DNA from: Escherichia coli
Lineage (GTDB): Bacteria > Pseudomonadota > Gammaproteobacteria > Enterobacterales > Enterobacteriaceae
Direction: 5' to 3' (one strand)
Assembly: GCF_041886205.1 (NCBI RefSeq)
Contig: NZ_CP169029.1
Length of the DNA: 64,000 bases
Shown here: positions 32,748 to 60,358 of the stretch, in pieces
Layout of the letters: each line of letters starts with the position of its first letter
How positions within the stretch are numbered: position 1 is the stretch's first letter
The notes under the pieces: model-generated
What the model saw: only the letters and a program-made list of their open reading frames with translations
Told to the model about the DNA's origin: nothing
Database searches by the model: none
Made by a program: the position numbers and the translations under genes

Positions 32748-32778
32748 TCAAAGACGCGTATTTATTATCATTTTTGCA

Positions 32779-33604: not shown

Positions 33605-33607
33605 AGA

Positions 33608-33630: not shown

Positions 33631-33640
33631 AAAAGAAGAG

Positions 33641-34090
33641 TCAGGCTTTTACCTGCTGGTAACGGCTGACTTTAAACAGTCGGCGGCAATAATCGAGGAA
33701 GTAGCCATAAACCGCCCCCATCAACATCGAAACAACGATGTTTGAACTGACCGCCGCCATAATCTGATGCCAGTCTGCGCCCACCACTAACAAGATCGCC
33801 ACATACACCGGTGACTGGAACGTCACATAAGCCAGGATATCCGCCAGATTTTTTATCCAGCCCGACGGGCTAACTTTGCGTGCCGCGCGCATAAACAGAT
33901 CGCGGTACATACCGTATGGCCATGCAATTAAGATGTTCACCGGAATCGCTACCAATCTGGAATAAAAAGACTGTTCGAAGCTCATTCCGGAGAGGAAAAC
34001 TTCAATACACATGTTCACGACAGAACAGTAAACAACCATCGCGAACGTATCTGCAACTGCATGACGCAAGCGTGACTGCGGTGAGAACAT
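33641..34090 (-). CDS. alaE: L-alanine exporter AlaE (YgaW)
   Basis: 149 aa, 4 predicted TM segments. Confidence 0.9.
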
Positions 34091-34769
34091 GCTAATGCTC
34101 CTTAATAAAAGCGTAATGGGATGTTAATGGAGATGAAAGCAGTGGATCTCATTGCCATCTGCATTTTCGCATAGCGTATATCGCTGGCTATGACTAATCA
34201 ATTAGTGAAAAATTTTTATTTAATCAGTTTTTGTAGATAAAATATTCCGTAACGGCTCGTTTTTTGTACATTGTGGATTTTTACATGCCGATATGATTTA
34301 TTTTTAATTAAATCAATTAGATATGGGCTTGCCTCTAATTTCACTAATGCAAGTTTGGGGGTGAGGTAACGCTATAAGCGTAGAGAATTCGGTGTATGTA
34401 GTGGCCGGGTCATTTTCAGCATTTTTTATGCCAGACAATGTACATTAACAGCAGAAAGCACCGGTGATGGATGTTTTCTTTTATTCTGTTATATTGCATT
34501 TTTATTCACTTTGGTTTTGTCAGGCTTGCGGAATTAGCGAGCAGAGAGCGCCGTTCTGTTCACCAATAATCTAAATTACTCATCAAAATGGCTAATATAT
34601 AATCTTGAAATTATTCTGAGAGTTTCAGAAAATAACAGCTGAAATAATCTCGCGCAGGACTGGCATACTAATTTTGTGACATATAAGGTACGCCACATCG
34701 ACATCACCAATCAAATACATACTCTTTTTTGTTTTGGTGCTCCAGCTGTTCCAGCACCATGTCCAAATG

Positions 34770-40700: not shown

Positions 40701-43150
40701 CTCAGCCAGAAGCTGTGTCTGACGCCTGCTCAGGCCACTGTGGGCTGCCAATGCTAGTTGCTTTCAGACATTGCGCCAGGAATCGATGGCATAATGGTGT
40801 TGCTGGCTCCAGAACAATTAGGTGTATCTCTTCCTCCATGTAACTGTTGCAGAATGTGTTTGCCCTCCAGGAAGACGCTACCCAGACCAGAAGGAAGGGG
40901 TTACTTATTACTCTTGCTTCAGCTGGTACCTGTCCACTTTAGTGTAGACTGATGTCATCAACGAGCAATGAAATGGGTGGCGGAGGCCAGCCAATGAGTG
41001 GGCAAATGCGTTGTGTGTCATAGTGGTTTATCAGCACCATGCACCGAACGTGACCAGCTTGTTGTGGTTTTTGCTATGTTGTGAGGCCGATCACGGCTCA
41101 TCCCCGTCATGCTGTGAAGAAGGACTGTGCTGAAGTTTATTACTTATTTGTCCGAAGGTTATTAATTAGGGTACATGTTCACTTATGTTGTAGACGTGCT
41201 AGGTCGACGAGGACAAAGGAGATGGAGCTGATTGCCAGGCGGACGGTGGAGGAAAACGGACGAGCCCATTGTGATGGCTGGTCACTGTGAGTGAGTGAGG
41301 AAGATTGTGAGGAAAGTGGATGGAGCAGAGAGAGAGAGAGTCCAGTGAGCCCCCAAGACGGTTTGACCTCAACCACTCAGTGGTGCAACTGTTGATCTGC
41401 ACGCACCGAATGAGACAAGACCAGGTGGTTAGGAAATGCTGCACAGAAGTGGTGCGTCAGGATGCATGTTGTGATGCTGCCTCCACCAGTGTGGCCATCA
41501 AACCATGGTGGTGTCAAGTGGTGTTGTAATGGCGCCAGACACGAAAGTGAGGACAAACTGGCTGTTTATTGTTGCAGCACCGCACTCAGCGTGAGCATTA
41601 GGCCAGGAAGAGAGCAGTTACGAGTTATCCATGTTGCCTGTGCACCACCACTCGTCCAGCTGACTGCTTCTGCGTCAGACTATGCCCTTGCCGTAACCGT
41701 TGCCATTGCCGCGACGGAGCCAACGCCACGGAGCCAGCGTCTGCACATTTGTTGTCAACTCCATGTCAAGCGACCCCTCGGAACGGTTGTGACATTTATA
41801 TGCGGTGGCAGTTTGCCGCCGTTCCATTTCAGAGTTCAGGTGTGCGGGCGACAGAGCGACTCCTGATGAGTTGGTCATCAGAGCCATGCTCCCAAAAGCC
41901 ATGCTTTGAGCTGTCACGGGGACACAAATCCTAGGATCAGGCCTCGCCCTGTGTCTTCAGCAGGAATGTCATTTTACAGTACAACTGCAGTCCACCTCAC
42001 CAAAAAAAAATCAGACGCCCATCTGTGACTCATGAATGTTTGTAGTGGTTAGGTTAGGAGAGGCAGCCACCTAGATCATGTGCCAACATCCTTGCTAGTA
42101 AGTGGTTATGTGTGAGACCAGAAGAGGTTGTTAATTCAGAGTCAACTGCTGTAAGCGGTACAGGTAGCAGCTTACTGTTTCTATGTGTTCAAAGTGACTC
42201 ACCGACTAGTTGCTCTTTCTTTCAAATTTTTGCCAACTAACTTTATATACAACCACTCACCATCAGATCAATGATGAAATATTTTGCCGACTTGTGCAGG
42301 CACATCCATGCTATGTGTGGTGGAAGAGTGAATTTAGACAGCAGAAGTCATTGGAGGTCAAATAATCCTCCACGGTACCCTTTACCACTTTATTTTCACA
42401 CCCACAAATTGATGTCACCGGACAGGCCGTCCAATCACTAGGCCAACAAGCCGTTGAAATGTTCTGCCAGCAGAAGAAAATGTAAATATGCCGCCATTGC
42501 ATCGAATTTTAGTGACTGAGTGACCACCGCCTCACCCTAGCTTCACCATTCCTACCGCCTACATCTACAACCACTCAATTCATTAAACAGCCCTTCAGGC
42601 TCAGGAAGTCTTGCAGAATGTGTTGTAATTATCTAATACAATTGTCAAAGACTTGGTGACCAAAATGAAGTGATCCATCAGTTGCCCAGGTATGCATTGT
42701 AGTCAAGTGCCCTGTTTGTGATGTTATATATATATCTGATGAATGTAATAGGTTACACAGCAGAGTTGTGAATCACAGGTTGTTTTTTCAGTGGACGATG
42801 CATTCATGTAGCCATTCTTTTTACTAGATGAGGAAGGGAGCCATCATCATTTGAAGCTAATTTAAAACATCCAAAAATGTACCAGCTACAATTGTTTTTC
42901 ATCGAAAATAGAGGAGTTGAACATTTACAGTAGCCAGAATAAAGTGAGAGGAAAAATGAAATGCAGAAAGACAGGTTAGGCCAAGATACGGTCAAAGAAC
43001 TCAATAACTAGAGGAAACGACACACACCCGCCCTGTTTTAGGGTAATAAAACATGAGATGACAAACAACTGTGTGGCTGCTTCCGGAAATAAGATGCAGG
43101 CCCGAGCCAAGCATACAATTAGATATGTCACAAACGCCTCAACTAGTAGA
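34770..43150. other. ~8.4-kb block without credible protein-coding potential and with non-E. coli sequence character (boundaries approximate)
   Basis: Longest ORF in six frames is 190 aa and the translations are Cys/Trp-rich and random-like; (CA)7 near 34896, C15 at 39173-39190, (GA)8 near 41330, A9 near 42003, (TA)6 near 42727; apparent CpG under-representation; occupies the place of stpA...csiD. Confidence 0.6.
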
Positions 43151-43155
43151 TATGA

Positions 43156-45285
43156 TCAATCAGTTGTGGAGAATCTTGAGGAACGAGAAACATGATCACT
43201 CCCTGAATGATTGATCTCTCTGATGTTGCTAGGTGAGAGGCAACCTCTCAACCTTCTTTTATTTATTATAACTAGTCCATCATGAGGAGAGTGATTAATG
43301 TTCACAGAATCCCCACGACTAAAGGCCAGAACGTTTTTAGTTGCAAATACACCCTCAAATGCGCTCCATATTCCTGCTTTATCTATATATAATGCGTGGA
43401 ATTCATTGTAGAGCTGCTGATAGGTAGAGCAACCTTTATTAAGCCACGCCTCACCGCCGACACGCGTCGACCCATCATCATTTTTAATTTCAGTCGTTGA
43501 TTTTAATACTTGGCCATCCCAGTAAACTAAAGGCCTGCTGAACGGGAGAGCGGCCATATATGCCATTGCTAATTGTTCATCTTGTTGATGGTTAAATAGA
43601 AAGTCATTGAAAAGATTGCCATTGTTAGGAAAATCGTGGTTAATGTTAATCAATATCCGTCTTTTTGATGGGATGCTTGAGATTGTTGAACCCGGTTTTG
43701 ATGCAAGGGTTTGGAGATCGCCACCAAATGAAAAAGCTTTTATCGTCTTCATGAGCAATGAAAAATCAATGGCGCTTAAATCATCTCTTTCATAAAGCAG
43801 CGATGACATTTGTTGTTCATCCAACTGACTAGTTACCAGATATTCCATGTAATTCATAACGGCTTTTTCATGATATTTTGGGTTAAATAAGTTAGTATTG
43901 TGTAATCGCTCATTATAATTTTTAAGCGGTGGGGTTATTGATCTTTCTATTTGTTCATGTTTTGAGTGTTTTGCTGCATCGTAACGTAAACCTCGTACGC
44001 CATATTTTCGCATTTCACGAACGTATTGATTTTGCAGCATAATAACCTGGTCACTTTTGGGGGTTGTTTTAGGCATTCCATTTAAACGCTTTTCTTTTAA
44101 TGCATAGAGGTTTTCCCATTCATCCTTAGAAATATTATCTTTACTTGCTTCGAAGTCTTTTGCAGTGAGATGTATATCTTCTGGATGGATTTGTTTACGT
44201 TCTTTTGTTACTGGATCTATAGTAAATGGAATCAAAACCTGACCTTGCCAATAGCCAGGGATACCACTTTCTATATCTTTACTGATCTTCGCTCGTATAT
44301 CAGTAGAGGGATAATCCAGGTCATTTTTACCACTACCCCCGATTCCCATAAAGTTAAAGGTATAATCAGGAATGATATCGATACCAAATTTTTTAGCATC
44401 TTTAACCAATGCGATAAAATCCTGCAAATCTCCCATTGGATTATGGATGGTACAAAGATCTTCGGGTTGATAAGCGTGAAACCAGTAACCTTTTTCTTCT
44501 TCGGGAGTTTCTGGTCCGTCGGCGCGGAAAGTTGTCACTGGAGGGATTTGTATATACCCATAATGGCAACGTGCAAACTCAGACATATTTTCCCTGATTT
44601 GCTGGTAGGTGGCATTAAAAGCATGAAGAATCGCTTCGCCAGGTTTTTTAGGGGTGATGATTTCACATTGTGATTTCTGAACAGCAGTAAGAGATTTACG
44701 CTCAAGTGTTTGCCGTAGATGTTCTGGATTGATTAATATTTTAAATGTTTCTTGCTGTCCGGAAGGTGACGTCACGTTAATATTATATACATCGGCTGCC
44801 AGCTCATAGTCAGGGATGTTAATAGCATATGCAACATATTTATCTTTTGGGGAGGGTTTTTCAGATATAATGTGGGTGAAATATTCAGCAGGACCATACT
44901 GGTGAACCCCCTTGTTATCTTCTCTTTCATTCATTGTATCTCTTTGATAAATCCATGTTTTTCCTTCTCCTATCCTGTCTGGCGCTGTAATGCTACGCTG
45001 TGCAGCTTTATTCAGTTCACGGTAAGTTGTATCTGGAAAAAGGGAAATTTTATAATCGTTTTTTAACAGATCATTAATGATTTTTTCTGCGTGAAAAGTT
45101 GATATAATTTCTCTGTCTTTTAAATCCTGAGGATAAACTCCACAAGCATTAATAATATTTGTTACACAGTTTAGATATTCTAATGTATTTAATTTGGAAT
45201 TTAGATCCCCGTCAGTAATGTTCCATGATAACAATGTGGGGGTGTCGATAGGTAAATTTCTTGGTCCTGGTTTTATAGAAAACAT
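43156..45285 (-). CDS. ygaQ: Alpha-amylase family (GH13-like) protein, probable intact form of ygaQ
   Basis: 709 aa AT-rich ORF; motif GVRGLRYDAAKH resembles GH13 conserved region II (GxRxDAxKH); adjacent to ileY as ygaQ is in E. coli; C-terminal ~40 codons may run into the anomalous block. Confidence 0.5.
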   Translation of the reverse strand: MFSIKPGPRNLPIDTPTLLSWNITDGDLNSKLNTLEYLNCVTNIINACGVYPQDLKDREIISTFHAEKIINDLLKNDYKISLFPDTTYRELNKAAQRSITAPDRIGEGKTWIYQRDTMNEREDNKGVHQYGPAEYFTHIISEKPSPKDKYVAYAINIPDYELAADVYNINVTSPSGQQETFKILINPEHLRQTLERKSLTAVQKSQCEIITPKKPGEAILHAFNATYQQIRENMSEFARCHYGYIQIPPVTTFRADGPETPEEEKGYWFHAYQPEDLCTIHNPMGDLQDFIALVKDAKKFGIDIIPDYTFNFMGIGGSGKNDLDYPSTDIRAKISKDIESGIPGYWQGQVLIPFTIDPVTKERKQIHPEDIHLTAKDFEASKDNISKDEWENLYALKEKRLNGMPKTTPKSDQVIMLQNQYVREMRKYGVRGLRYDAAKHSKHEQIERSITPPLKNYNERLHNTNLFNPKYHEKAVMNYMEYLVTSQLDEQQMSSLLYERDDLSAIDFSLLMKTIKAFSFGGDLQTLASKPGSTISSIPSKRRILININHDFPNNGNLFNDFLFNHQQDEQLAMAYMAALPFSRPLVYWDGQVLKSTTEIKNDDGSTRVGGEAWLNKGCSTYQQLYNEFHALYIDKAGIWSAFEGVFATKNVLAFSRGDSVNINHSPHDGLVIINKRRLRGCLSPSNIREINHSGSDHVSRSSRFSTTD

Positions 45286-45844
45286 AATAACGTTCCTCTA
45301 ATGGTAGAGTAATATGATGTATACGGAAACATAAAAATGTTTAATTGTTATGAAAGTAATTGCAAACAGATGTCCTATTTTTATCCAATATTTATATGGA
45401 AAAGGATAATGCTTAAATCTGTTTTTTTAATTATCGATGTGGTCTGGAGAGGCAACTGTCAAAAATCGCTCATACGAAACTAATTATTAGCAGAATAAGT
45501 TCTATAAAAGAATATATTGCTATATGAAGTTTATTTTTATGGAGTGAAAAGTAACAGATATCATAATGATGCGAAAACTCTTCAGTTAATGTAATAAACT
45601 TATATTATTAGATACAAAATCATTACAAAGTATCATTGAATCAATGATAACTATAGATAGTGTTAATTATTAACATTTGCTTGTTGACTGCGAGTATCGA
45701 CTTTGCGAATGGAGGCGATGTCGGGTTTTATGTCGCATGTATTGACGACCCAAGGTGAATGGGAACGCATAAAAATCTGTTATTTACATCATAAGATCAT
45801 CATGTTTATTGCGTGGTTTATAAGTATTGTTATTGCATACTTAA

Positions 45845-45920
45845 GGCCCTTTAGCTCAGTGGTTAGAGCAGGCGACTCATAATCGCTTGGTCGCTGGTTC
45901 AAGTCCAGCAGGGGCCACCA
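45845..45920 (+). tRNA. ileY: tRNA-Ile2 (anticodon CAU, lysidine-modified type)
   Basis: 76 nt GGCCCTTTAGCTCAGTGGTTAGAGCAGGCGACTCATAATCGCTTGGTCGCTGGTTCAAGTCCAGCAGGGGCCACCA. Confidence 0.85.
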
Positions 45921-46036
45921 AATAAAACAAGGACTTAGACAGGAAGCTGGCTAAGTCCTTTTTGTTTTGTTTCAATCTGGGTGACGTAATGGGTGACGTA
46001 ACTCAACTATAGGTGCCGTAGTCAGGGAGATTTAGC

Positions 46037-46831
46037 ATGAGCTTTAAGGATAAAGTTGAAGAGAAAAAAATGCGCCGTATGGCCCGTCCCCCTGAGTTAA
46101 CGGTAAAGGACTGGATTAGCCTTTATGATCTTCTTCGTTCAGCCAAAGCTCAAGACTCAGAAGCCATGTACGAAGACTTCGCCTCTGTGCTGTTAACTAC
46201 CCTGTCGGTTGAGCATCATCCGGAACTATACCGCCTGGACGGAAACAAACTAAACGCTGTTGCCGATGACCATTTTGCCTGGGACCTACTATCCGCCCCA
46301 ATGAAAGGGAAAATGTCCCCTGAAGAATTGGCGAAGCGCCCGAAGACCCTTTCCCAACTTCTTTGTATCTACGATGAAGATATCAGTAACGACGAGTCAC
46401 TTCGTACACATGGCTTCTTGCGTGACGCTATTGCCCCTATCCTCGATTTCGAGCTTCTGGATAGCATCGAAGATGAGCCTGACTACAAAGAAAAATATTT
46501 CGAGTTGCTAGCAGCGCAAAAGCACTCGACTCCCCCGCCACTAAGAGGGGAAAGTTATGCTATCAAACGAGAAGAGTTGCTGATCACAGCCCTTGCGGTT
46601 ATCTCTCAAAATCAAAGAGACGCTAATAAAAAGGTCGTCCCAACAGTTACTGAACTTCTGAATCAGATAGAAAAACATGCCTCTGCGTTCTGGCCTCACA
46701 GTAAACAACTTCCGATGTCTCGTGAGAATGCTTCTAAAGAGCTAGGCTTCGCCTTACATCTTTTAGAACAACCAAATCAGAATATTGAATTTCTTCGGGA
46801 AGCCAAAAAAGCAAAAAGAAAAAGTGCATAA
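46037..46831 (+). CDS. Hypothetical protein (264 aa), acidic, no recognisable motif
   Basis: ATG with AGGGAG RBS; first gene after the tRNA 3' end, where an integrase is normally found. Confidence 0.55.
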   Translation: MSFKDKVEEKKMRRMARPPELTVKDWISLYDLLRSAKAQDSEAMYEDFASVLLTTLSVEHHPELYRLDGNKLNAVADDHFAWDLLSAPMKGKMSPEELAKRPKTLSQLLCIYDEDISNDESLRTHGFLRDAIAPILDFELLDSIEDEPDYKEKYFELLAAQKHSTPPPLRGESYAIKREELLITALAVISQNQRDANKKVVPTVTELLNQIEKHASAFWPHSKQLPMSRENASKELGFALHLLEQPNQNIEFLREAKKAKRKSA

Positions 46832-46963
46832 AAAGAAATAGTTACAAAAGGTACCCAGTAATCTTCAGGAAGGTACACGAGAAATATACCGTTCAGTTTG
46901 ATTAACTCCGTTCAGTTTCAGCTTTCACCACCAGGAGTTATTCAATTGAAAAATAAACCAACC

Positions 46964-47167
46964 ATGTCTGATAAGGTTGTCGCCCTTCATCAGCCCCAAC
47001 GTCTGATTCGCATTGATACAATGCTTCAGCTCCTCGATTGCAGTCGCACCACCCTCTACCGCTGGGTTAAAGCTGGCATTTTCCCACAGCCGATAATGCA
47101 TGAGGGCCGAACCGTAGGATGGCCAGCCAATACGTATCAATGCTGGCTTGAGCAAAATAACAAGTAA
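46964..47167 (+). CDS. alpA: AlpA-family phage/island transcriptional regulator (MerR-like HTH)
   Basis: IRIDTMLQLLDCSRTTLYRWVKAGIFPQPIMHEGRTVGWPANTYQCWLEQ matches the AlpA pattern; ORF track start 46898 is a TTG-initiated extension, ATG at 46964 more likely. Confidence 0.7.
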   Translation: MSDKVVALHQPQRLIRIDTMLQLLDCSRTTLYRWVKAGIFPQPIMHEGRTVGWPANTYQCWLEQNNK

Positions 47168-47272
47168 TTCTGTTTGTTAAAGGGCTGAAATATTCAGCCC
47201 TTTCTTCATCTGACAATGAAACAAACTGGAACAAAAACGATTATTTTCACCTATTCTGCGACATGCTAAAAC

Positions 47273-48589
47273 ATGAGTAACTCTCTGATTAATCAAGTAA
47301 CAAAGCCCTCACCTGGTCAGGAACTCACCTCGGTATTTAATACTATTACGCCCGATAAGCCTGGCAACCTTGTTGAATATCAGCCAAAGGGAACGTTTGT
47401 TTTCAAAGAAGTGATGTGGTCTGTGCTGCCAGAGAAACGCAACCAGGACACGAAGATCATGAAAAGAATCTTCGGGGCAGTTGACAAGGTATCAGCGATG
47501 TCTCGCTTTCTTGCGGTCAGATATGATTTTCGGCTCCCGACCTACAGTGCGGATAATCGCATAATGGATGATTTCCATAATTTACTTTTCCGCCAGTTAA
47601 GTAAGAACTACCCAAAATCGTTTATCAGCTATCTTTGGGTAAGAGAGCAGGGCTCAGGGGAAGCACAGCATTATCACTATTTGTTGATGCTGGATGGCAA
47701 CTATATCCGTTATCCAAATAAGCTGAATACGATTGTCCGACATTGCTGGGAACAGGTTGCTGGTGGTTCGGTATGGTTCCCGGAAAACGGTTATTACTTT
47801 GTGAGCGAAAATGATCTCAAGACCTATACCGAATTGATGCTGAGAGTTAGCTATCTGGGTAAGCGCCGTACTAAAGAGTCAATTGATAAAGGTATCAAAC
47901 TTTTTGGCTCAGGCATGCGCAAACCGAAACCTGTCGCGCCTTCACGCCAAAAGTCTGCAATAACACCCTGCAAGCCAATCAACCAAAAAGCGGAGACGAA
48001 AACCAACGATCAGGATATGACGTTGAAATCCACCTACTCAGGAATGTTGGACAAATATTTTCTGGGCAAAGCCCGATTACCCGCCGTTCTGCGTAAACGT
48101 TCATCCTATGAACTTTATGACGAAAATAAATGGTGGTGTAATTCACCACGTTGGTCCGGCCATCGTCATAACTACGTGTTAGAGGCTCTGATTACTGGGA
48201 TCAGCCTTTCTGATTACGCACGCAAGTACAAGTTGAATCCAGTACGGGTATATGCAAACTGTCGCCGTGTTGGGGGGCAAAGCCTTAAAATTATTCACTG
48301 GGCATGGCATCGCTATTGCTTCCAGAAAAGCAAATCCACACAGGATGACTACATTAACAATCACCGGCTGAATCATAAAACAGCTAAAAAGCAGTTACGG
48401 CGTAAACCAATGAGCTCTCACTGGAGCCAGCACTTTGATCGATATTATCAAAAGTACTGGCCGAAAGGCTGGACTGTGGCCGACTACTGCCGTGAACACA
48501 ATCTGGTCGCCAGCACTGCCAGACGTTATATAGTCGATTTTCCATTTATAGGCCTGATAGACCCGTTCTTGTTGAAACCATGGTTATAG
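47273..48589 (+). CDS. HUH-motif protein, YagK/YfjJ-like (inovirus Gp2-type replication-initiator-like domain)
   Basis: 438 aa; HUH-like motif AQHYHYLLML; typical neighbour of alpA in CP4-type islands; C-terminal half basic, Trp/His-rich. Confidence 0.5.
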   Translation: MSNSLINQVTKPSPGQELTSVFNTITPDKPGNLVEYQPKGTFVFKEVMWSVLPEKRNQDTKIMKRIFGAVDKVSAMSRFLAVRYDFRLPTYSADNRIMDDFHNLLFRQLSKNYPKSFISYLWVREQGSGEAQHYHYLLMLDGNYIRYPNKLNTIVRHCWEQVAGGSVWFPENGYYFVSENDLKTYTELMLRVSYLGKRRTKESIDKGIKLFGSGMRKPKPVAPSRQKSAITPCKPINQKAETKTNDQDMTLKSTYSGMLDKYFLGKARLPAVLRKRSSYELYDENKWWCNSPRWSGHRHNYVLEALITGISLSDYARKYKLNPVRVYANCRRVGGQSLKIIHWAWHRYCFQKSKSTQDDYINNHRLNHKTAKKQLRRKPMSSHWSQHFDRYYQKYWPKGWTVADYCREHNLVASTARRYIVDFPFIGLIDPFLLKPWL

Positions 48590-49176
48590 AGATGAAAACA
48601 CCATAACAGTGTCACCTGGTATACTTACTGAGCGCGGCGTAACTTAAATATAAACACTTAGCCGCCATCAGTAAGCAGAGCCTTATCAACACTACCAGGG
48701 AATTATTGTGCAGCATGATAGCTGAGGTACCTCTCAATTCTTGACGGACATTAACGCACAGACAACGCTGATTACCTCCTGTAAGCCAATTTATATCTGC
48801 TTGCTGCCACATATCCGCTGGGACTAATCCCCTTTAAACACCTTTTACTTCAAAAAAATGTTTTCCTTCTGATTTATCCCATACGCGAAATAATGAAGAT
48901 TTTATTTTAATTACTAATACTTTCAATGAGATAAGATGCATACATTCTTACACTCATATGATCACTTTTATTTTTCTTTTAATATCAACACGTTATGAAT
49001 TGATCAGCACAAAAGTCACTGCAGGGGGTTAGCTGATTGAACGTTTCAGTTCGTTTCTAATGGCCACATATAGATTCACATCAAGAACTAGTGATCACTG
49101 TAGGGTAACGGTATGCCCAGATCAGCCTGCAGGGTATTCGCTGCGGATGACATGAAAAACAAAGACAGGGGATTGC

Positions 49177-49824
49177 TTACGGGTCAACAAACACACTGAT
49201 GGGGAGGTTAAACCGGCGCGCAAGTGCTCGCTTGTGATCCAGTGTTAATGTGCAATCCCCTTTCAGGATGCGACTCACCAGAGATTTATTACCAATCTCT
49301 TCTTCAAAATCGCTCTGAGTCAGTTTGTGCTGATCCATCAGTACGCGCAGTAAGGCAACACCCGTTGGGACCGCTGCAATACGGCTATTAAATTCAGCAA
49401 ACTCCGGCGCTTCATCTTCATACTGACCGATTTTCGCAACCAGAATATCCACCAGCGGATGGTCCGGCTCGTGTTCAATCAGATACTCGACCAGAGCCAG
49501 TGCATCTTCACTGTGGAAGCGTACGACTGATGTATAGGTAACATTTTGTTCAGTAATATATTTCATGGCTGCCAGTAAGTAGGAAGCTTTGAAAGTCACG
49601 TCCTGATAGTCCTTAGCTAACAAACTCCCATTCTCTTCAAACCGTTCAACAAATGCTGCAACTTCTTTTGGATCGATACGGCTGGTTTTATCTTTTCCGT
49701 TTCGAACAAACAGCTTTTGTTCTTCAGTATATAGCGTAAAAGGTACCTTCCTTGCCCCAGTAGACAGTTCAACTGGTTGGGAAAAAGACTCCAACATTAA
49801 ATGATAGAAATCTTTATAAGTCAT
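49177..49824 (-). CDS. Two-domain protein: unknown N-terminal domain + C-terminal XRE-family HTH
   Basis: 215 aa; C-terminus LTQSDFEEEIGNKSLVSRILKGDCTLTLDHKRALARRFNLPISVF fits HTH_XRE; lies 89 nt downstream of mcrC on the same strand. Confidence 0.6.
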   Translation of the reverse strand: MTYKDFYHLMLESFSQPVELSTGARKVPFTLYTEEQKLFVRNGKDKTSRIDPKEVAAFVERFEENGSLLAKDYQDVTFKASYLLAAMKYITEQNVTYTSVVRFHSEDALALVEYLIEHEPDHPLVDILVAKIGQYEDEAPEFAEFNSRIAAVPTGVALLRVLMDQHKLTQSDFEEEIGNKSLVSRILKGDCTLTLDHKRALARRFNLPISVFVDP

Positions 49825-49913
49825 GATTACTACTCCCTCATCATTTTAGCACTCAAGAAAATACATGATGTGGTTGATTATCCGGTTGATAATTATGAAT
49901 CGTCATCGTCTCA

Positions 49914-51215
49914 TTACGGGGAAAACAGGGGGAAGGACGATTGCCACTCACCTTCCACTAATGCCCCTGATTCAAGCTCGAAGGGCACACACCAGAGCGA
50001 TAAATGTTTATCAAAATGGAACACTGGCAACGGAGTATCAAAAAACTGATGACGTGGATATATCAGCATCATATTCCCCTTCCCTTGCAGATATTTTTGC
50101 CCATAAGCGAACATCTGATACAGATCAGCCTGGTTAATTTCATACTTTCTCAGGCTGTTATCAGCTCGGCTGTCTAACAGCTTCCATTTGGCATCCAGTA
50201 CCATTACCTGCTCACCTGTGATGAGAAAGTCAGGTTTAAGCATGAACCATTGTTGAGGAGCCCTTTCGCCAGCAGGTACATGATCTAACAAATAATGACG
50301 TTTTGCCTGCTCAATAAGCTGATAATCCCTCAGCAAAGATAAAGCCAAACTGCGCCCCACCCAGCATTCATATAATTTTTCCATCGGGAACAACAGCGAG
50401 ATCCCCTGATGCAACCCATGCTGAAAATCTGGATTCAGTTTTTCCAGAATAAGTTGGCACCATGGCTTGATGGCACGATAAGCATAGAGATATTTACCGT
50501 TGCTCCATTGCGCCAGAGGCTGCGTTGTACTGCCACAAATTGGCTCTATACCGTCCAGTTGGTGGCTCAACGTGTTCGCCTGTCGCCAGCTCTGCCCCTC
50601 TTTGGTCATTTTAAGCACCCAATTCAGGGCCGTACGTAACAGACGGTTTTCAACTCGCTGAGGTGAAAACTCCGCATAACGCACATGAAAGCGAGCATCT
50701 CTACCAGGAGGCTGTCTCATTTGTGCCGTGATGTTCAACTGACCACGGATAAAAGCGCTGTGCTCATCCTCAACAAGGTGGTAGTCGAACCGCAACCCTT
50801 TGTGTACCAGTTCGGTAAGATGCCGCAAGAACTCGCTGAAAATCCACTCATGCATCGGCTGGTTGCTCCGCTGCAATGCAGCCTGATTAACTTCTCGGGG
50901 TGTAATCCCCAATGAAGCGCTGAGCATTCGACGTAAAAGCTGACGCAGGGGGATTATCTCAGTTGGCGCTTCAAATGTGGTTTTGGGCAGAATTTCAATT
51001 GACTCGCCATTCGGGGATTGTAGATAACCGACATAGCTTCCCAAACGCAAAAACCGCTTCCCTTCTCGGCTGAGAATTTGAGAGGTACCACTCCACTTTT
51101 GTTGCAATTGCTCAAGCCAGGAAAAGGTTGCCTCAGAGACAATTCCCAAATCCATACTGGCTGTTTGAGAACTATCACAAGTCAGCAGAGCATATTCCCG
51201 GACCTGGATCATCAT
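49914..51215 (-). CDS. mcrC: McrC-family nuclease subunit of a type IV (modification-dependent) restriction system
   Basis: 433 aa; PD-(D/E)xK-like VLDAKWK motif; 4-nt overlap with upstream McrB-like gene. Confidence 0.75.
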   Translation of the reverse strand: MMIQVREYALLTCDSSQTASMDLGIVSEATFSWLEQLQQKWSGTSQILSREGKRFLRLGSYVGYLQSPNGESIEILPKTTFEAPTEIIPLRQLLRRMLSASLGITPREVNQAALQRSNQPMHEWIFSEFLRHLTELVHKGLRFDYHLVEDEHSAFIRGQLNITAQMRQPPGRDARFHVRYAEFSPQRVENRLLRTALNWVLKMTKEGQSWRQANTLSHQLDGIEPICGSTTQPLAQWSNGKYLYAYRAIKPWCQLILEKLNPDFQHGLHQGISLLFPMEKLYECWVGRSLALSLLRDYQLIEQAKRHYLLDHVPAGERAPQQWFMLKPDFLITGEQVMVLDAKWKLLDSRADNSLRKYEINQADLYQMFAYGQKYLQGKGNMMLIYPRHQFFDTPLPVFHFDKHLSLWCVPFELESGALVEGEWQSSFPLFSP

Positions 51216-53194
51216 GTGACAATACCCTGATAAGCTTCTACCGACGCGAAAGCACGTTCATTGATGCGAAAACGCCTGTCAGACAAGCTATCCGCAATAT
51301 CTTTCGGGAATAGTTCAGAGAATGACGGTAATTGTGCTGACTGTTGCAACAGGATAAAACGGTTTTCTTTCGCTTTTACCGAATCATTAAGCACCCAACC
51401 AATGCGCTCATAATCATCAAAGAAATACTCTCTCAGTAATGGAATGATTTTGTTCTGGAAGATGCTGGCCAGACAGGCTTCGCGGTCGGCATTATTTTCT
51501 AATTTTTTTAGTGGCATAAAGTAAGCATGGCCAATCATATGTTCACTATCCAGCAGCGCTTCGATCCGCTGATTAATACGCGTTAACAACGTTTCGACAT
51601 CAACACCGAACGCAGTGACCCCAGCTAACAGCTCCGGTCGTGCGGGCATTTCGGTAAAGCTAAAGCGTCGTCTTAGCGCCAAGTCCATTTGGATGAGTGA
51701 TTTATCCGCAGTATTCATCGTCCCAATGACATAAACATTTTGCGGTACTGAGAATGCTTGCTTTGAATAAGGGAGCATCAGCGACCGCTCATCATCGGCC
51801 CCTTGACGTTTGTCCGGCTCAAGAAGAGTAATAAGCTCACCAAAGATACGTGCTATATTACCGCGGTTGATTTCATCTATTATCAGTACATGTGGTAGAT
51901 CCTGACTATCGGCATTCTCAACAGGAGCCAGCAACTGAGTTAATTTTTCACGATCAATCGTCGTATCCTGCAACTCATATAGGGTCATCTGAGATAGTGA
52001 CTTGATGAAAATTTGCTCTTTAGGAAGGCTTGGGGTGTATGTTCTTAACCATTTAACTGAACGCATTTGATGGTAATACTCACGTTCATCATTGGGTAAA
52101 TAACTATACTCACCTGTAATCTCAGCTATTGCACGGAACTTATGATTTCCATCAGAGACGACGACTAAATCGCCATTCTTAATAATATTTTTAAAGGTAT
52201 TCACGGCAACAGCCATATAATTACTGGTGCCTTCCAATGACTGTTTTTCTGATGCAATCCGAGCTTTGACTGACTCATAGGTAGAGCAGTTACTAAAATC
52301 GATATCTTCTCCCCAACCTAGCAGGACATAATTGTTTGCCAGGCAGTCCTCATACACATCCTCTTCTCCGCCCATGGTATTACCCAGAGACATCTTCCAG
52401 ATCCGCCGACCTTTGAGTGAGATAGATTGTGTTGCACTCCCCTGAACTTTAACCCTGGCATTCAGGCACAGCTGTTTAAAAATACCATCCACAACTTCGT
52501 AGCGAAGCGCGCCCGATTTTTCATCAGTAGTTGCGCGAATCCCTTCGATAAAATCTTCATAGGAGAAGCTCTGATGGAAGGTGGTAAACATAATGCGCTG
52601 CTTTTCTACCAACGCCTTATAGCGTTCATTTACCAACTCCCGTAAGTCATTGCCATGATGTTCGAGCGTAGCCTGTTGGTACCACGTATTATCGGCAATT
52701 TTGACCGCCATTTCGGTGGTACTGTAGGTTTTACCCGTGCCGGGTGGTCCAAAGAGAATTTGGTTTAAGGGATACATTAACGATTGTTCCTTATTTTCGT
52801 TGTCTCTTTTTAGTCTGGGTTGGGTAGTTATAGATGGTTTACCACCCAGCAAAGCCACCAGCGTCTGCAACGCTTCAACGGATTCAACATCAGCCGCGAA
52901 ACCATATTGGGATGTACCGTTATCTTTCGGATAACGGCGGTAGCTGGTGCTTTTTACTTTTTCCCAAAGGCAGTGGATACCCGAAATGCGATCAATTTCC
53001 GCTTTTACGGCAAGGGTTTCAGGTGCAAGAACCAATGGACTCTTTTTAACCACGCCGTCCCGGCTGCGTTTGACATACAGATACTTTCCATTCCCGAGCG
53101 CATGTTCGGATGCATAGCTTGGCTCGAATTTTCCCGCCTCAAGCCGGTAACCCAATTCATTCAACGCCTGGTATATCTCGAAAGAATTCAGCAT
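51212..53194 (-). CDS. mcrB: McrB-family AAA+ GTPase with atypical N-terminal domain and ~190-aa insertion between Walker A and Walker B
   Basis: 660 aa; Walker A GPPGTGKT, McrB-type Walker B LIIDEINRGNIARIFGEL, FHQSFSYEDFIEG; inserted segment RRIWKMSLG...GDLVVVSDGNHKFRAIAEITGEY...RSVKWL. Confidence 0.75.
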   Translation of the reverse strand: MLNSFEIYQALNELGYRLEAGKFEPSYASEHALGNGKYLYVKRSRDGVVKKSPLVLAPETLAVKAEIDRISGIHCLWEKVKSTSYRRYPKDNGTSQYGFAADVESVEALQTLVALLGGKPSITTQPRLKRDNENKEQSLMYPLNQILFGPPGTGKTYSTTEMAVKIADNTWYQQATLEHHGNDLRELVNERYKALVEKQRIMFTTFHQSFSYEDFIEGIRATTDEKSGALRYEVVDGIFKQLCLNARVKVQGSATQSISLKGRRIWKMSLGNTMGGEEDVYEDCLANNYVLLGWGEDIDFSNCSTYESVKARIASEKQSLEGTSNYMAVAVNTFKNIIKNGDLVVVSDGNHKFRAIAEITGEYSYLPNDEREYYHQMRSVKWLRTYTPSLPKEQIFIKSLSQMTLYELQDTTIDREKLTQLLAPVENADSQDLPHVLIIDEINRGNIARIFGELITLLEPDKRQGADDERSLMLPYSKQAFSVPQNVYVIGTMNTADKSLIQMDLALRRRFSFTEMPARPELLAGVTAFGVDVETLLTRINQRIEALLDSEHMIGHAYFMPLKKLENNADREACLASIFQNKIIPLLREYFFDDYERIGWVLNDSVKAKENRFILLQQSAQLPSFSELFPKDIADSLSDRRFRINERAFASVEAYQGIVT

Positions 53195-53223
53195 TTCCTA
53201 CACCACTCCTTGATGAAAAAGCG

Positions 53224-56200
53224 TTAAGCCCCTTTCAACATATCAAACACCACGCGGGCAAAGCCCTTCGCCAGTTCAGGATTAGAGAGGTATTGCACCA
53301 TCATCTCCTGCTGGGCGTCGTTGCTGTCCATCACGGCATCATCAATGGCTTTCGGGAAATCGCCCAGCATCGCCTGCTCACGCGTATTGTTCGCAATCTG
53401 GGTCATCACCGCCTGGTTTTCTGACAGCTTGTCGCGCACCGCGAAGGCATAATTGATCATGTCTTTATCGGTCAGATTATCGGTGACGAACAGCTCGTTC
53501 AGGCGCGCCAGGATATTCGACAGAAACTCTTCTTTCTTGTCTTTCGGCTTCGCCGTACCGACATCATTCCCCGGTGTGATTTTGTATTCTGCCGCATCTT
53601 CCTGCAGCTTCAGATGCTGTTCGTGGAGTTTCGACAGGCGATAATGGCTCATCTCCACGTTGCTTAAATCAATCTCATCTTCTTCGATACGCTGTTCATG
53701 CAGTAACGGGCGCAGGTGGCGGGCAAATAGGCTCAGTTTTTCCAGGTTCTTGTCGTCGTAATCGACGATTTGCGACATAAACTCGTAAAAGCGGACAAAG
53801 CTGCCGAGGTCTTTCTTGAAGATATCCAGCTTACTTTTTTCTTTCTCGCACTCTTTGAAGCTGTTTTCCGCATTGGTGATCAGCACAACATCGCCGGTCT
53901 TCTTAGTACGTTCGAAGATCGCTTTGGCCTTTACATACTCGTCAATCGCCGAGGTGTAACGCTGTTTCCAGCGCTGCACCGCTGGTTTGCAGATATTACT
54001 AATGGCCGCGTTGGATTTGTTTTTGCTGAAGAACGCTTCGCAGAACTGCTCCACTTCGTTCCACAGGAAAATACCGCTGGTACGCAGCTTTTCAAAGAGC
54101 TCAAAGACCTGTTGCGGGTCGCTGACATCCGTCAGTTCTGCTGTCTGGTAGTACGGCTGGAAAGCCCCCAAAATCTCGTCGGGCTCGTTGTAGAAATCGA
54201 GCACAAAGGTGCCTGACTGCGCCTTCCCCGGATAGGTACGGTTCAGGCGTGACAGCGTCTGTACACACTCCACGCCGCCAAGCTTTTTATCCACATACAT
54301 GGCACACAGCTTGGGTTGGTCAAAACCGGTCTGGAATTTGTTGGCCACCAGCATCACCTGGTAGTCGTCGGTATCAAACGCTTTGCGCATATCCCGGCCT
54401 TTCAGGCCTGGGTTCATATTGATTTCGGTGAACTTCTGGTTAAGCAATGCAAGGCTATTGTGGTCATCTTCATGGAACTCAACTTCACCGGAGAACGCCA
54501 CCATTGCGCTGATCTTGTCGTATTTTTGCTCGGCGATGTATTTATCGAATGCCAGCTTATAGCGCACCGCTGCTTTACGCGAACTGGTCACCACCATCGC
54601 TTTCGCCTGACCAGCCAGTAAGTGCATCACATGCTTGCGGAAGTGCTCAACAATCACCTTCACTTTCTGCGACACGTTATGATCGTGCAGCGATACCCAC
54701 TGGTTGAGTTTGATCTTGGCTTTCTTGCTGTCTACTTCCCGGTCAGGATCGTCCAGCTTTTGCAGCAGCTTGTACGCCACCTTGTAGTTGGTGTAGTTCT
54801 TCAGCACATCAAGTATGAAGCCTTCTTCGATGGCCTGACGCATTGAGTAAACGTGAAACGCTTCCGGTTTGTTCGTTTTCGACGCCGGTTCCTGCGGATT
54901 AGGACGACGGCCAAACAGCTCCAGCGTTTTGGCTTTCGGCGTGGCGGTAAAGGCGTAATAGTTGAGATTGTTGCTGCCTTTACGTGCGGCGACGGTGGCA
55001 TCCAGAATATCTTCTGAAGACATCTCCACATCGTCATCCGCTTCTTCGGTCATAAGCACTTCTTTCAGCTGACGCGCCGTAGAACCACTCTGCGAGGAGT
55101 GCGCTTCATCGGCAATCACCGCGTATTTGCGCTGCTTGAGGCTGACGCTGTTTTCAATCGCCTTCAGGACAAACGGGAACGTCTGGATAGTGACGATAAT
55201 GATCGGCTGCGAGTTTTCCAGCGCGCTGGCCAGCTTCTCCGATTTAGAACCGTCGCCTTCTTTGTTATTGATCCGCCCGACCACGCCATCCTGATGCTCA
55301 AACTGATAGATGGTGTCCTGCAGCTGATCGTCAAGCACGGTGCGGTCCGTCACCACAATCACCGAATGGAACTGCTTCTCGCCATTTTCATCATACAGGC
55401 GGGAAAGCTGATGGGCCGTCCAGGCGATAGAGTTAGATTTGCCCGACCCGGCACTGTGCTGAATCAGGTATTTATTGCCGGTGCCTTCCACTGTGGCGGC
55501 GGTGATCAGTTTATTCACCACATCCCACTGGTGATAGCGTGGGAAAATCAGGCTCTCACTTTTGTACTTCAGGCCAATGGCATCTTCTTTTTCTACGATT
55601 TGCAGATGCACGAAGCTCGCGAGAATTTTCAGCAGATTGTCCGGCAGTAGCACCTCATTCCACAGGTAGCTGGTGGCGTAGTCGTTGGCATCTTCCGGGA
55701 TATCGTTCCCCGCACCGCCGTCATGGGTGCCTTTGTTAAACGGCAGGAAGAAGGTTTTATCGCCCTCGAGTTTGGTCGCCATAAACACTTCGTACTGGCT
55801 GACGGCAAAGTGCACCAGCGCGCCGCGTTTAAAGGTCAGCAGCGGCTCGGGTTTATTAGTGCCTGGGTCCTTTGGCAAACGCGTTTTCTTATATTGCGTA
55901 ATGGCGTTTTGCACCGTCTGCTTAAATTCAGACTTCAGTTCCAGGGTCGCTATCGGCAGGCCATTAACGAACAATACCAGGTCGATACGCCATTTCTTCG
56001 CTTTTATACCGGTATCTTCAAATGCGGCGTTCGATGCATGCGGGCTGTAAACCAGCTCCGGCACGATGCGGCAGATATTCTGTTTATAACGAGCCAGTGT
56101 TTCCGGATTGAGGTTATGTTCCGGCTTAAACTGGCACAGAGAAAAACGCGCGTTATGGCTTTTGATACCATGTCGCAGCACGCCTAAAGTGCCATAGGTG

Positions 56201-56472
56201 CGCGAAAGCATATCAGTAGCGTTGATGTCCGCTTTTTTCAGCTGCGCCACCAGCGCATCGAGGAAATGACGTTCGGTATCGGTAGGGTAAATTTTGGCAA
56301 ACTTCTCCCACTCCTGCGGCTGTGTGGTCTGCACAAAGGTCAGCACATCCTGGGAATACAGCGCACGTTCGCGATCATAGCCGTCAGTTTTGCCACAAAT
56401 CCAGCCTTTTGCTTTCATCTGAGCAATCATTTCGTTCTGGAAGATAAGCTCTTTGGTGCTGTCCATGCTCAT
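53224..56472 (-). CDS. hsdR: Type I restriction enzyme R subunit (HsdR)
   Basis: 1082 aa; helicase motif I SAGSGKS, DEAH-like ADEAHSSQ; 4-nt overlap with hsdS. Confidence 0.9.
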   Translation of the reverse strand: MSMDSTKELIFQNEMIAQMKAKGWICGKTDGYDRERALYSQDVLTFVQTTQPQEWEKFAKIYPTDTERHFLDALVAQLKKADINATDMLSRTYGTLGVLRHGIKSHNARFSLCQFKPEHNLNPETLARYKQNICRIVPELVYSPHASNAAFEDTGIKAKKWRIDLVLFVNGLPIATLELKSEFKQTVQNAITQYKKTRLPKDPGTNKPEPLLTFKRGALVHFAVSQYEVFMATKLEGDKTFFLPFNKGTHDGGAGNDIPEDANDYATSYLWNEVLLPDNLLKILASFVHLQIVEKEDAIGLKYKSESLIFPRYHQWDVVNKLITAATVEGTGNKYLIQHSAGSGKSNSIAWTAHQLSRLYDENGEKQFHSVIVVTDRTVLDDQLQDTIYQFEHQDGVVGRINNKEGDGSKSEKLASALENSQPIIIVTIQTFPFVLKAIENSVSLKQRKYAVIADEAHSSQSGSTARQLKEVLMTEEADDDVEMSSEDILDATVAARKGSNNLNYYAFTATPKAKTLELFGRRPNPQEPASKTNKPEAFHVYSMRQAIEEGFILDVLKNYTNYKVAYKLLQKLDDPDREVDSKKAKIKLNQWVSLHDHNVSQKVKVIVEHFRKHVMHLLAGQAKAMVVTSSRKAAVRYKLAFDKYIAEQKYDKISAMVAFSGEVEFHEDDHNSLALLNQKFTEINMNPGLKGRDMRKAFDTDDYQVMLVANKFQTGFDQPKLCAMYVDKKLGGVECVQTLSRLNRTYPGKAQSGTFVLDFYNEPDEILGAFQPYYQTAELTDVSDPQQVFELFEKLRTSGIFLWNEVEQFCEAFFSKNKSNAAISNICKPAVQRWKQRYTSAIDEYVKAKAIFERTKKTGDVVLITNAENSFKECEKEKSKLDIFKKDLGSFVRFYEFMSQIVDYDDKNLEKLSLFARHLRPLLHEQRIEEDEIDLSNVEMSHYRLSKLHEQHLKLQEDAAEYKITPGNDVGTAKPKDKKEEFLSNILARLNELFVTDNLTDKDMINYAFAVRDKLSENQAVMTQIANNTREQAMLGDFPKAIDDAVMDSNDAQQEMMVQYLSNPELAKGFARVVFDMLKGA

Positions 56473-57791
56473 GCGGTGGCCTCCTGTGGCTCCTCAGCGT
56501 CCTGCGTGTCAGGTGCTACCCAATCACGGACGTCGATTTTTCCGGTGACGGCAGCGGAGATCAGGGCGGTACGGCGTTCCTGGAGAATTTGAATAGTCTG
56601 CTCGACCATTTCTTGAGTTATTTGTATTTTGTCTATCTTTTCCAGTACTTTTTTTGCCAGATAAACCTGATCATCAAAAGGAATATCTCTCACGTAAAAA
56701 TTACTAATTTGCTCTGGACTAATATGCGGCACACTAACACCAGTCAAGTCTATTTCAGCATATTCTCTGAATTCATTGCTACTAAGACATAATTTAATAA
56801 ATGGTTGATATGATTTTATATTTGACCTTATCCTTGCAACTCGCTGCAATAAGAGGCAAGGTAAATCCTGCTCTTTAATTTCTGAAACCCTTGCTCCAGA
56901 ACTAATCCATGGTCTATCCATACCAAAAACAATATCGCCAGCCGCTAATAAATAATCACTGAGCCTATCGAGTGTTCTAACATCCCAATATACAACGTCA
57001 TCCCATTTTATGCTGTCAACACCGACATTAACCCCTCGTAAAAGAGGAATACTATTATCAGGTGAAAATTTAAATTTTGTACTTGAAAATGGATAGCCAG
57101 TTTGAATACTAACTAAGTTTTTTAGCTTAGTTTTCCTCTCATTACTACGTATACTGGCGACACTTGAGATCACGGCCTGACGCTTTTCTTTAAGTAGTTC
57201 AATTAGTTGCTGTTGCTTCTCGATCAGGTTATCGATTTTTGCAGTTTCGTGATCGAGGAAACTGTATATTTTTTCCTGCTCAGTCTTGTCTGGAAGCAGC
57301 AGCTCAATATTTCTAAATTCATCAGGATCCAGATCCCATTGATTGACTCGTATCCCCTTGGAGCGGCTCAGATATTGAGTAACGTAAATCGGGTTGCGAA
57401 GTAAATAATGCACATACCTTGGATGTGCCAGTTCAAAAAGGACATTGTTGGGTTTATAGACAAAATATGCCGGACTAACTATCCCTTCATACTCTGAAAT
57501 TGCGATTGAACCTTGCCAGGCTTTCATCTTATTCATAACCAAATCATTTGGCTCAACCAATTGATAGGGGGACAAATCCTCTGAAGGCTTATTATTGTTA
57601 TCATCTCTGCTTGATTTTGGTATAACACCATAGTCCCGATATACGGAAAGCAATTCTTTCTCTGTATATCCGGTCCGCTTGATCCTGGAAAACAATCTGG
57701 ATATGGATACGGTTTTCCAGTGATTCGGAATCTCCCCCAACCACTCAACCCCAGAATCCTTATACTCCGGATACATCTTATACTTCGCCAT
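56469..57791 (-). CDS. hsdS: Type I restriction-modification specificity subunit (HsdS)
   Basis: 440 aa with two TRD-like halves separated by a central conserved region; start overlaps hsdM stop by 1 nt. Confidence 0.85.
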   Translation of the reverse strand: MAKYKMYPEYKDSGVEWLGEIPNHWKTVSISRLFSRIKRTGYTEKELLSVYRDYGVIPKSSRDDNNNKPSEDLSPYQLVEPNDLVMNKMKAWQGSIAISEYEGIVSPAYFVYKPNNVLFELAHPRYVHYLLRNPIYVTQYLSRSKGIRVNQWDLDPDEFRNIELLLPDKTEQEKIYSFLDHETAKIDNLIEKQQQLIELLKEKRQAVISSVASIRSNERKTKLKNLVSIQTGYPFSSTKFKFSPDNSIPLLRGVNVGVDSIKWDDVVYWDVRTLDRLSDYLLAAGDIVFGMDRPWISSGARVSEIKEQDLPCLLLQRVARIRSNIKSYQPFIKLCLSSNEFREYAEIDLTGVSVPHISPEQISNFYVRDIPFDDQVYLAKKVLEKIDKIQITQEMVEQTIQILQERRTALISAAVTGKIDVRDWVAPDTQDAEEPQEATA

Positions 57792-60175: not shown

Positions 60176-60358
60176 AAAAAAGTGGCAAGATTATACCCCA
60201 TCAGGCATAAGATGCTTTGACTTATAACGCATCAGTTTGAAACACAATGGTGATGGGGGTCACAGGGGCTGACATGTACTTTTAAGATTAAAAAGCATTA
60301 ACATCTACTTTTGAAGAAAACAGAAAAAAACAATCACAAACCTTTAAAAACAAAAACT

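Follow-up and report, generated by a model that had tools for sequence, protein, structure and literature searches.

Results

A composite reading frame follows mcrC

The window, by which we mean the whole 64,000-nt stretch of the Escherichia coli contig NZ_CP169029.1 (assembly GCF_041886205.1) analyzed here, carries on its minus strand hsdR, an mcrB-like gene and mcrC, followed on the same strand and after a gap of 89 bp by a 215-aa open reading frame (ORF) that the ORF list gives from ATG to stop at 49177..49824. A first-pass annotation made from the letters alone had placed this ORF downstream of mcrC, as is confirmed here, and had proposed for it a regulatory or accessory role in the neighboring restriction-modification (R-M)/McrBC module. 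Comparison with two parental gene families instead identifies the ORF as a chimera, an in-frame fusion in which codons 1-106 and the ribosome-binding site (RBS) of one gene, termed geneX, are joined to the antitoxin gene higA from about its codon 30 to the stop. The product is probably an orphan HigA-type DNA-binding protein and not a sensor-regulator of R-M/McrBC. Throughout the text, geneX is the name used in this analysis for an uncharacterized ~205-aa family linked to McrBC, and L and P numbers denote the loci and proteins that were compared.

The frame of 648 nt is open in all four distinct alleles of the chimera, at a synonymous divergence (dS) of up to 0.12. The Shine-Dalgarno sequence read in front of it is GAGGGAG in three alleles and GAGTGAG in L023, and intact geneX loci have GAGGGGG in its place; in the allele alignment, 4 of the last ~85 columns 5' of the ATG vary by our own count (4/85), far fewer than further upstream. 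Scanning around the chimera for promoters returned weak promoter-like sites only, no more than expected from shuffled sequence, and a scan for terminators in the same region, the 587-bp spacer on its 3' side included, returned no terminator-like site.

Depending on the record, the same DNA is annotated as a pseudogene fragment, as a 215-aa coding sequence (CDS) or as a 129-aa CDS starting at an internal Met, under names that include "transcriptional regulator / HigA" for the 215-aa form, HTH protein for the 129-aa form, "hypothetical protein" and pseudogene. The closest complete E. coli genome is that of strain GDSC2227PM, the only one among 5,426 to contain the chimera sequence, which is 100% identical to the window over 48600-50000 and 99.8% identical over 44027-60369; outside this region the window does not represent that genome. 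Its annotation by the Prokaryotic Genome Annotation Pipeline (PGAP) lists hsdM-hsdS-hsdR-AAA-McrC and then a pseudogene at 49177-49509 only, described as "transcriptional regulator, missing N-terminus". Because the identical 215-aa protein is found on 88 contigs, the chimera is not an assembly artefact. A 129-aa Salmonella protein (P0187), considered as a copy with a decayed N-terminal part, was rejected as such, its DNA holding the intact 215-aa ORF with the annotation placed at the internal Met.

The two parents meet at a microhomology

Residues 1 to ~105 of the chimera share 84-87% aa identity with the geneX proteins P0003, P0004 and P0011, over that stretch only, and in a search of 5.8 billion proteins the geneX relatives of ~205 aa match only the N-terminal ~50% of the chimera, while many HigA proteins of 138-139 aa match only the C-terminal ~50%. 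The AlphaFold2 (AF2) model of the chimera has a predicted local distance difference test score (pLDDT) of 85-95 in the geneX N-domain and below 50 at the junction. The first-pass annotation had called the N-terminal domain unknown, and residues 1-106 indeed have no match in Pfam, NCBIfam or PADLOC, but they are half of the geneX family. A degraded HigB was also considered as the source of this half and was ruled out, since it has no similarity to HigB by tblastn and is 84-87% identical to geneX.

The C-terminal half is recognizably HigA. Residues 107-214 match the E. coli/Shigella HigA (YgjM) entries 5YCL and 5IFG at E 6e-29 (phmmer against all PDB sequences), aligning with HigA residues 29-135 and 32-138, respectively, so that the earlier comparison with HigA-like antitoxins is upheld for this half. 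The C-terminal XRE-type helix-turn-helix (HTH) noted at the same time is also real, although its Pfam HTH_3 match at residues 160-211 stays below threshold (19.8 bits, cutoff 23). The best HigA relative (P0002, 139 aa) is 83% identical to this part at the aa level and, by sequence comparison, has the same presumed recognition helix, KSLVSRIL. At the DNA level, blastn finds higA genes of plasmids and phage-plasmids at 81-82% nt identity, the matches to the plasmid genes stopping at 49510, and in their own loci these higA relatives sit after the higB toxin gene. The first-pass annotation had named clear homology to a well-characterized regulator family encoded elsewhere as what would speak against its proposal, and HigA is such a family.

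The alignments of both parents switch at the same place. Against the intact geneX locus L006 the window is ~90% identical in DNA up to ~49506 and not at all beyond, and against the higBA locus L014 it is ~80% identical between "TGAAGA" (~49511) and the stop, with no relationship upstream of that. By tblastn, residues 1-104 of the geneX protein P0011 correspond to 49824-49504 and residues 30-138 of HigA to 49509-49183, an overlap of 6 nt (49504-49509), and the boundary of the PGAP pseudogene at 49509 coincides with the junction. The abutting parental alignments therefore place the crossover inside a GAAGA microhomology, in frame.

The fusion took away the geneX C-domain, higB, the promoter and operator of higBA and the first ~29 residues of HigA. 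Helices alpha3-4 of the HigA N-terminal domain, the linker and the HTH are retained, and geneX sequence replaces helices alpha1-2, leaving the N-terminal domain (residues 1-80) incomplete. The first-pass annotation had seen no small toxin ORF next to the gene, and a tblastn search with two HigB sequences found none beside the chimera or anywhere in the 64-kb window (best E 0.15); the gene immediately upstream is mcrC in place of higB. Neither a HigA N-terminus nor a geneX C-domain left a remnant elsewhere in the window that tblastn could find. The higB promoter of the closest HigA relative carries a perfect palindrome, GTTTCCA-N3-TGGAAAC, over the -10 region and start, which may be the HigA operator; the chimera has no such autoregulatory palindromic operator in a promoter of its own. 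The simplest history would be one deletion in an island that formerly carried geneX ... higB-higA.

geneX is a two-domain family linked to McrBC

Intact geneX lies 22-60 bp after mcrC in 10 of the 10 loci examined, for example at L006:10001-10618 and L017:10001-10618, forming a unit of mcrB (660 aa), mcrC and geneX. Three contexts are seen upstream of this unit, namely hsdMSR, a gene for a WYL protein together with a 163-aa gene, or housekeeping genes, the last representing a bare three-gene insertion. The family itself has no counterpart in Pfam, NCBIfam or PADLOC, and nothing in PDB or BFVD matches its AF2 model (pLDDT 79.5) significantly. Its C-terminal half is unrelated to HigA and rich in conserved Cys and His, with the invariants W-x6-G-(Y/F)-(V/I)-L, T-C-L-H-x3-C-x3-N-N and F-T-x3-Y-F-K-x-C and a C-terminal Cys; in the chimera this domain with its Cys/His motif is absent, HigA sequence following after codon 106. 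When 1.84 billion representatives were scanned exhaustively with HMMER, geneX proved to consist of two modules that also occur separately: the N-domain (~1-95) alone in proteins of 94-107 aa or behind a ribbon-helix-helix (RHH) domain in proteins of 147-148 aa, and the C-domain (~98-201) alone or N-terminal to HNH nucleases. No function could be derived for the stand-alone and RHH-fused N-domain proteins from their contexts, which are short contigs or unannotated neighbors. Passages of a census of CoCoNuT/McrBC systems describe Type I R-M-McrBC operons as frequent, and a term search of its text returned no mention of a third gene of McrBC cassettes (PMC11090510). geneX may be a third component, so far unrecognized, of a McrBC-type restriction cassette that is widespread.

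The two halves evolve under different constraint

Among the four alleles, the HigA part (codons 107-215) has 12 synonymous and 6 nonsynonymous polymorphisms and the geneX part (codons 1-106) 9 and 16. The excess of synonymous change is significant in the HigA part for every kappa from 1 (p 2e-4) to 8 (p 4e-3), and p ranges from 0.09 to 0.40 over the same values in the geneX part. Variable sites fall on codon positions 1, 2 and 3 in the ratio 4/1/12 in the HigA part and 6/8/11 in the geneX part, and the ratio of nonsynonymous to synonymous divergence (dN/dS) among alleles is 0.10-0.20 and 0.33-0.55, respectively. Between the chimera C-part and intact higA it is 0.09-0.13, about the same as among alleles; for the N-domain within intact geneX it is 0.06. 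In nucleotide divergence between the window and L021 or L023, the geneX part (5.0% and 6.9%) and the HigA part (2.4% and 3.9%) can be set against the mcrC stub (8.1-8.2%), the spacer (8.7-9.9%) and YagK (3.0-3.3%) of the same two pairs; the HigA part differs from the spacer with Fisher p 1e-4 and 1e-3. The HigA-derived half has been under purifying selection since the fusion, and most of the constraint on the geneX-derived half is gone. Even so, the latter has to be kept free of stop codons, since the HigA part offers no Met of its own before residue 163, far downstream.

These figures bear on whether both halves of the chimera work, with the geneX N-domain binding a partner or ligand and the HigA HTH, in place of the geneX C-domain, binding DNA; such a product might link sensing related to McrBC with transcriptional control. 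The N-domain is left whole by the break, the same domain is naturally fused to an RHH DNA-binding domain in P0137, P0139 and P0140, and dN/dS in the N-part is below 1, though not significantly. However, constraint on the N-domain fell 5-9-fold relative to intact geneX, family-conserved positions have changed (e.g. P28L), the three codon positions are hit almost evenly, and the chimera persists where McrBC is gone. Such a bipartite regulator is improbable. The architecture of a sensor domain plus HTH put forward by the first-pass annotation is likewise not supported, residues 1-106 being the 5' half of a separate gene and evolving almost neutrally.

The chimera travels with an island arm and not with the restriction genes

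The contigs that carry the exact chimera protein include Citrobacter braakii, a one-residue variant occurs in C. freundii, and variants diverged by 5-8% occur in Salmonella enterica and other assemblies. Together with 10 further contigs and the variants, about 100 public copies of the chimera are on record. In every locus long enough to show it, the chimera is followed by the arm YagK/YfjJ-AlpA-264-aa gene (Table 1). Citrobacter-type loci have the arrangement of the window, hsdMSR-mcrBC-chimera-587 bp-YagK/YfjJ-AlpA-264 aa. In Salmonella-type loci (L021-L024 and L034), by contrast, hsdMSR-mcrBC is absent, and the order comprises invasin/intimin-like genes, a 212-bp stub of the mcrC 3' end, the chimera and the YagK/AlpA arm. 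An mcrC gene stands directly upstream of the chimera in the window and in L008-L013, and only the stub, which carries indels, in the Salmonella-type islands. Since the chimera is kept without hsdMSR-mcrBC, it is inherited with the tRNA-proximal arm and has no obligatory partner among the restriction genes; hsdR, the mcrB-like gene and mcrC (49914..56472) are cargo upstream of it in this island. The fusion is older than the diversification of the family of islands integrated at tRNA-Ile(CAU) in E. coli, Citrobacter and Salmonella.

This distribution also bears on the proposal that the protein is a genuine regulator of the HigA or controller type, with a sensor domain and an XRE HTH, which regulates or assists hsdMSR-mcrBC. 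The gene lies on the same strand directly after mcrC and is probably co-transcribed, an XRE-type HTH is present, and PADLOC reports a weak match (E 9e-7) to PD-Lambda-2_B in its HigA-like N-terminal region. Against it stand the composite origin of the chimera, the absence of any family with this architecture beyond near-identical copies, the occurrence of the chimera without any R-M/McrBC, the presence of geneX and not of an HTH protein at this position in intact cassettes, and a gene arrangement that differs from that of controller (C) proteins, which are small and encoded upstream of the R gene. We regard this proposal, which the distribution already goes far to refute, as barely credible. 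The other suggestion of the first-pass annotation, an independent single-gene system, comes closer to the truth than its alternatives.

Table 1. Features of the island arm, the chimera and the adjacent restriction genes in the window (positions are those of the window).
Feature	Position	Strand	Remarks
tRNA(CAU)	45845-45920	+	tRNA-Ile (PGAP)
264-aa gene	46037-46831	+	conserved island arm
AlpA-like	46898-47167	+	conserved island arm
YagK/YfjJ	47273-48589	+	conserved island arm
AT-rich spacer, 587 bp	48590..49176	.	between convergent 3' ends of chimera and YagK/YfjJ gene; neutral comparator
Chimeric ORF, 215 aa	49177..49824	-	ATG 49824-49822; stop 49179-49177
HigA-derived part, codons 107-215 + stop	49177..49506	-	equals E. 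coli HigA residues ~29-138
XRE-type HTH, residues 160-211	49192..49347	-	Pfam HTH_3; AF2 pLDDT 74-85
Fusion junction, GAAGA microhomology, E106/D107, in frame	49505..49509	-	DNA alignments of both parents switch here
geneX-derived part, codons 1-106	49507..49824	-	complete N-domain, linker and first C-domain strand (VVRFHSE)
mcrC 3' end and spacer inherited together with chimera	49825..50036	-	in L021, L023 and L024, similarity to the window sets in at 50036
Shine-Dalgarno GAGGGAG, geneX-derived	49833..49839	-	8 nt 5' of chimera ATG; read from sequence
mcrC	49914-51215	-	Pfam McrBC E 7e-88; tail frameshifted
mcrB-like AAA+, 660 aa	51212-53194	-	upstream cargo
hsdR	53224-56472	-	upstream cargo

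Further features of the islands and of the window

The same island arm accompanies two kinds of cargo, Type I R-M with McrBC in some islands and invasin-like genes in others. The insertion site of the island in Citrobacter, Salmonella and Morganella lies beside rpoD; in Citrobacter, where this differs from the site in the window, a gene of the uracil-DNA glycosylase (UDG) family (mug-like) is next to the island, and in Salmonella a UDG-family gene adjoins it too. In L021 the far end of the island is marked by 50 bp that repeat the 3' region of the tRNA perfectly. In two Citrobacter-type loci (L009 and L010) an IS1 sits inside the 587-bp spacer, with the 9 bp of 48785-48793 on both sides, which looks like a target-site duplication.

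The restriction genes of the window have peculiarities of their own. Relative to L008, L021 and L023, mcrC has one extra C in a C-run at about 49930-49934, and the frameshifted product of 433 aa, compared with 452-455 aa, lacks the last ~20 residues; with this change the McrBC module may be beginning to decay in the lineage of the window. The McrB-like protein has an insert of ~110 residues (281-391) that matches the PADLOC candidate family PDC-S02 at E 4e-15, and its homologs in related loci are annotated with Pfam DUF8426 and McrB_lid. Its score against NCBIfam McrB (121 bits) is far below the cutoff (637), and it therefore belongs to a divergent McrB lineage.

On the other side of the tRNA gene, a 709-aa alpha-amylase-like ORF (43156-45285, minus strand; Pfam Alpha-amylase, E 3e-5) is intact in the window; in GDSC2227PM, IS1 splits it and the annotation lists two pseudogene fragments. 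In a stretch of ~8.5 kb next to it (~34663-43155), no ORF exceeds 190 aa and no Rfam family is represented; its G+C content is 0.40-0.53, and the query 36500-43200 gave no megablast match in the 5,426 complete E. coli genomes. It occupies the place of stpA, the gab operon and glaH in the closest genome, and its flanks are 97.7% (30384-34662) and 99.8% (44027-60369) identical to E. coli.

Discussion

A probable orphan HigA with a borrowed translation start

Our analyses point to a protein that would be translated from the signals of geneX and whose active moiety would be the HigA-type part, made of alpha3-4, the linker and the HTH; the 106 residues in front of it would be tolerated and serve chiefly as a leader providing the start codon. 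An orphan HigA of this kind would most likely bind HigA-type operators in trans, because relatives carry GTTTCCA-N3-TGGAAAC at the higB promoters of higBA loci on plasmids and phage-plasmids (for example in NZ_CP114569.1 at 40951-41103) and the presumed recognition helix is identical. It may in addition titrate HigB-type toxins and so act as an anti-addiction or cross-regulating antitoxin. Whether operators or toxins, the targets would be those of higBA on co-resident plasmids, on phage-plasmids or on the chromosome. A role as a repressor recruited to another target is an equally open alternative. The adjacent R-M/McrBC genes would not be under its control. Orphan antitoxins are common, and it has been proposed that they serve as anti-addiction modules or, once recruited, as regulators (PMC7192599). 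A more specific version, which we consider quite unlikely, is that of a domesticated gene, the island keeping a re-headed HigA repressor or antitoxin as a means of neutralizing or repressing the higBA addiction modules of plasmids and phage-plasmids that compete with it; these would be the targets because the closest higA relatives reside there, and partner binding by the geneX N-domain is conceivable in such a gene, given the natural fusions of that domain to RHH DNA-binding domains in other proteins.

Several findings weigh against an active orphan HigA. In the homologous SehB/HigA, the N-terminal domain (1-80) provides dimerization and toxin contact and the C-terminal domain the HTH for DNA binding, and Y32 of SehB is required for dimerization and repression (PMC7160566). 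The chimera has neither the N-terminal helices alpha1-2 nor the equivalent of this Tyr, and AF2 confidence is low in the remaining helices of the HigA N-terminal domain (pLDDT 41-59); dimerization and toxin binding may therefore be impaired. The palindrome GTTTCCA-N3-TGGAAAC is not above chance in the window, with 3 matches at 3 mismatches where 3.4 are expected, and the window offers no local target, neither operator nor higB. No pre-fusion parent, meaning an intact geneX or higA with an identity of more than 90% to the respective half, was found among the 5.8 billion proteins, nor in the complete E. coli genomes or the PLSDB plasmids, and the single-deletion history is on that account inferred. 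PGAP classes the HigA part as a pseudogene in GDSC2227PM. Derivatives that have decayed further exist in Morganella (103 aa), where geneX breaks off at ~49541 and is joined to sequence near the tRNA, and in C. gillenii (125 aa). Finally, the selection analysis comprises only four alleles, with 18 polymorphisms in their HigA parts, and the direct contrast between the N- and C-terminal parts is marginal (Fisher p 0.07).

Part of this list would be expected of a dead recombination scar, that is, a non-functional pseudogene hitch-hiking at the junction of cargo and backbone, whose open frame and low divergence reflect chance or youth. The PGAP call, the absence of toxin and operator, the 29 residues missing from the HigA N-terminus, the roughly neutral evolution of the N-part, the decay seen nearby in the frameshifted mcrC of the window and in the Morganella and C. 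gillenii truncations, and the smallness of a sample of four alleles all fit such a scar. It does not account for the synonymous excess in the HigA part (12:6), which holds over kappa 1-8, nor for a nucleotide divergence of that part 2.5-3.6 times below that of the spacer and mcrC stub and equal to that of the bona fide island gene YagK. In addition, none of the alleles, which differ at dS ~0.1, has an interruption in the 648-nt frame, and the chimera was retained through the replacement of the cargo. A dead scar is thus unlikely, though it deserves to be taken seriously, and a HigA-type protein under selection remains the preferred explanation.

Reading the locus as a geneX::higA fusion reconciles the conflicting annotations of the same DNA, and it carries the warning that the architecture should not be taken as that of a sensor-regulator of the defense module. 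It also provides a clean natural case of an orphan antitoxin outliving its toxin by means of a borrowed translation start, with two halves under measurably different selection, and makes the chimera a testable candidate for an anti-addiction or cross-regulatory role toward higBA on plasmids. As a McrBC-linked, two-domain protein that matches no family and no solved structure, geneX is the more novel lead and may merit more attention than the chimera.

Comparison with known systems

The chimera derives from, and presumably works like, a HigA antitoxin (K-12 YgjM, Shigella HigA, Salmonella SehB), with which it shares the C-terminal XRE HTH, a presumed recognition helix as in its closest relative and a constraint on the C-part similar to that of bona fide HigA genes. 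Unlike these, it lacks three features of the family, namely a complete N-terminal domain, the first ~29 residues (alpha1-2) being lost, a higB partner and, with the higBA promoter gone, an operator of its own; it has a foreign N-terminus of 106 residues and lies in the arm of an integrative island and not in a toxin-antitoxin operon. With geneX it has in common the N-terminal half, the RBS and, in the window, the position after mcrC, but it is not an intact geneX, as the C-domain invariants are missing and the N-domain is no longer constrained.

The C proteins of R-M systems are small (~70-100 aa) HTH proteins whose gene lies upstream of the R gene and which act on C-box operators. The chimera resembles them as an XRE-type HTH protein beside restriction genes but, judged by sequence, gene position, size and distribution, is not a C protein, sharing only the generic HTH, lying downstream of the nuclease genes, being more than twice the size and occurring without R-M. 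Component B of PD-Lambda-2 (PADLOC PDLC03982) is a defense protein with a HigA-like N-terminal module, and residues 107-213 of the chimera match positions 15-118 of its 402-position profile, whereas the remaining ~280 positions and the other PD-Lambda-2 genes are absent.

A further analogy is offered by orphan antitoxins, which are abundant in Klebsiella (PMC7192599): like them, the chimera is an antitoxin homolog without a toxin that is kept on a mobile element, and unlike them it arose by fusion to the 5' half of another gene, from which it would take its translation start.

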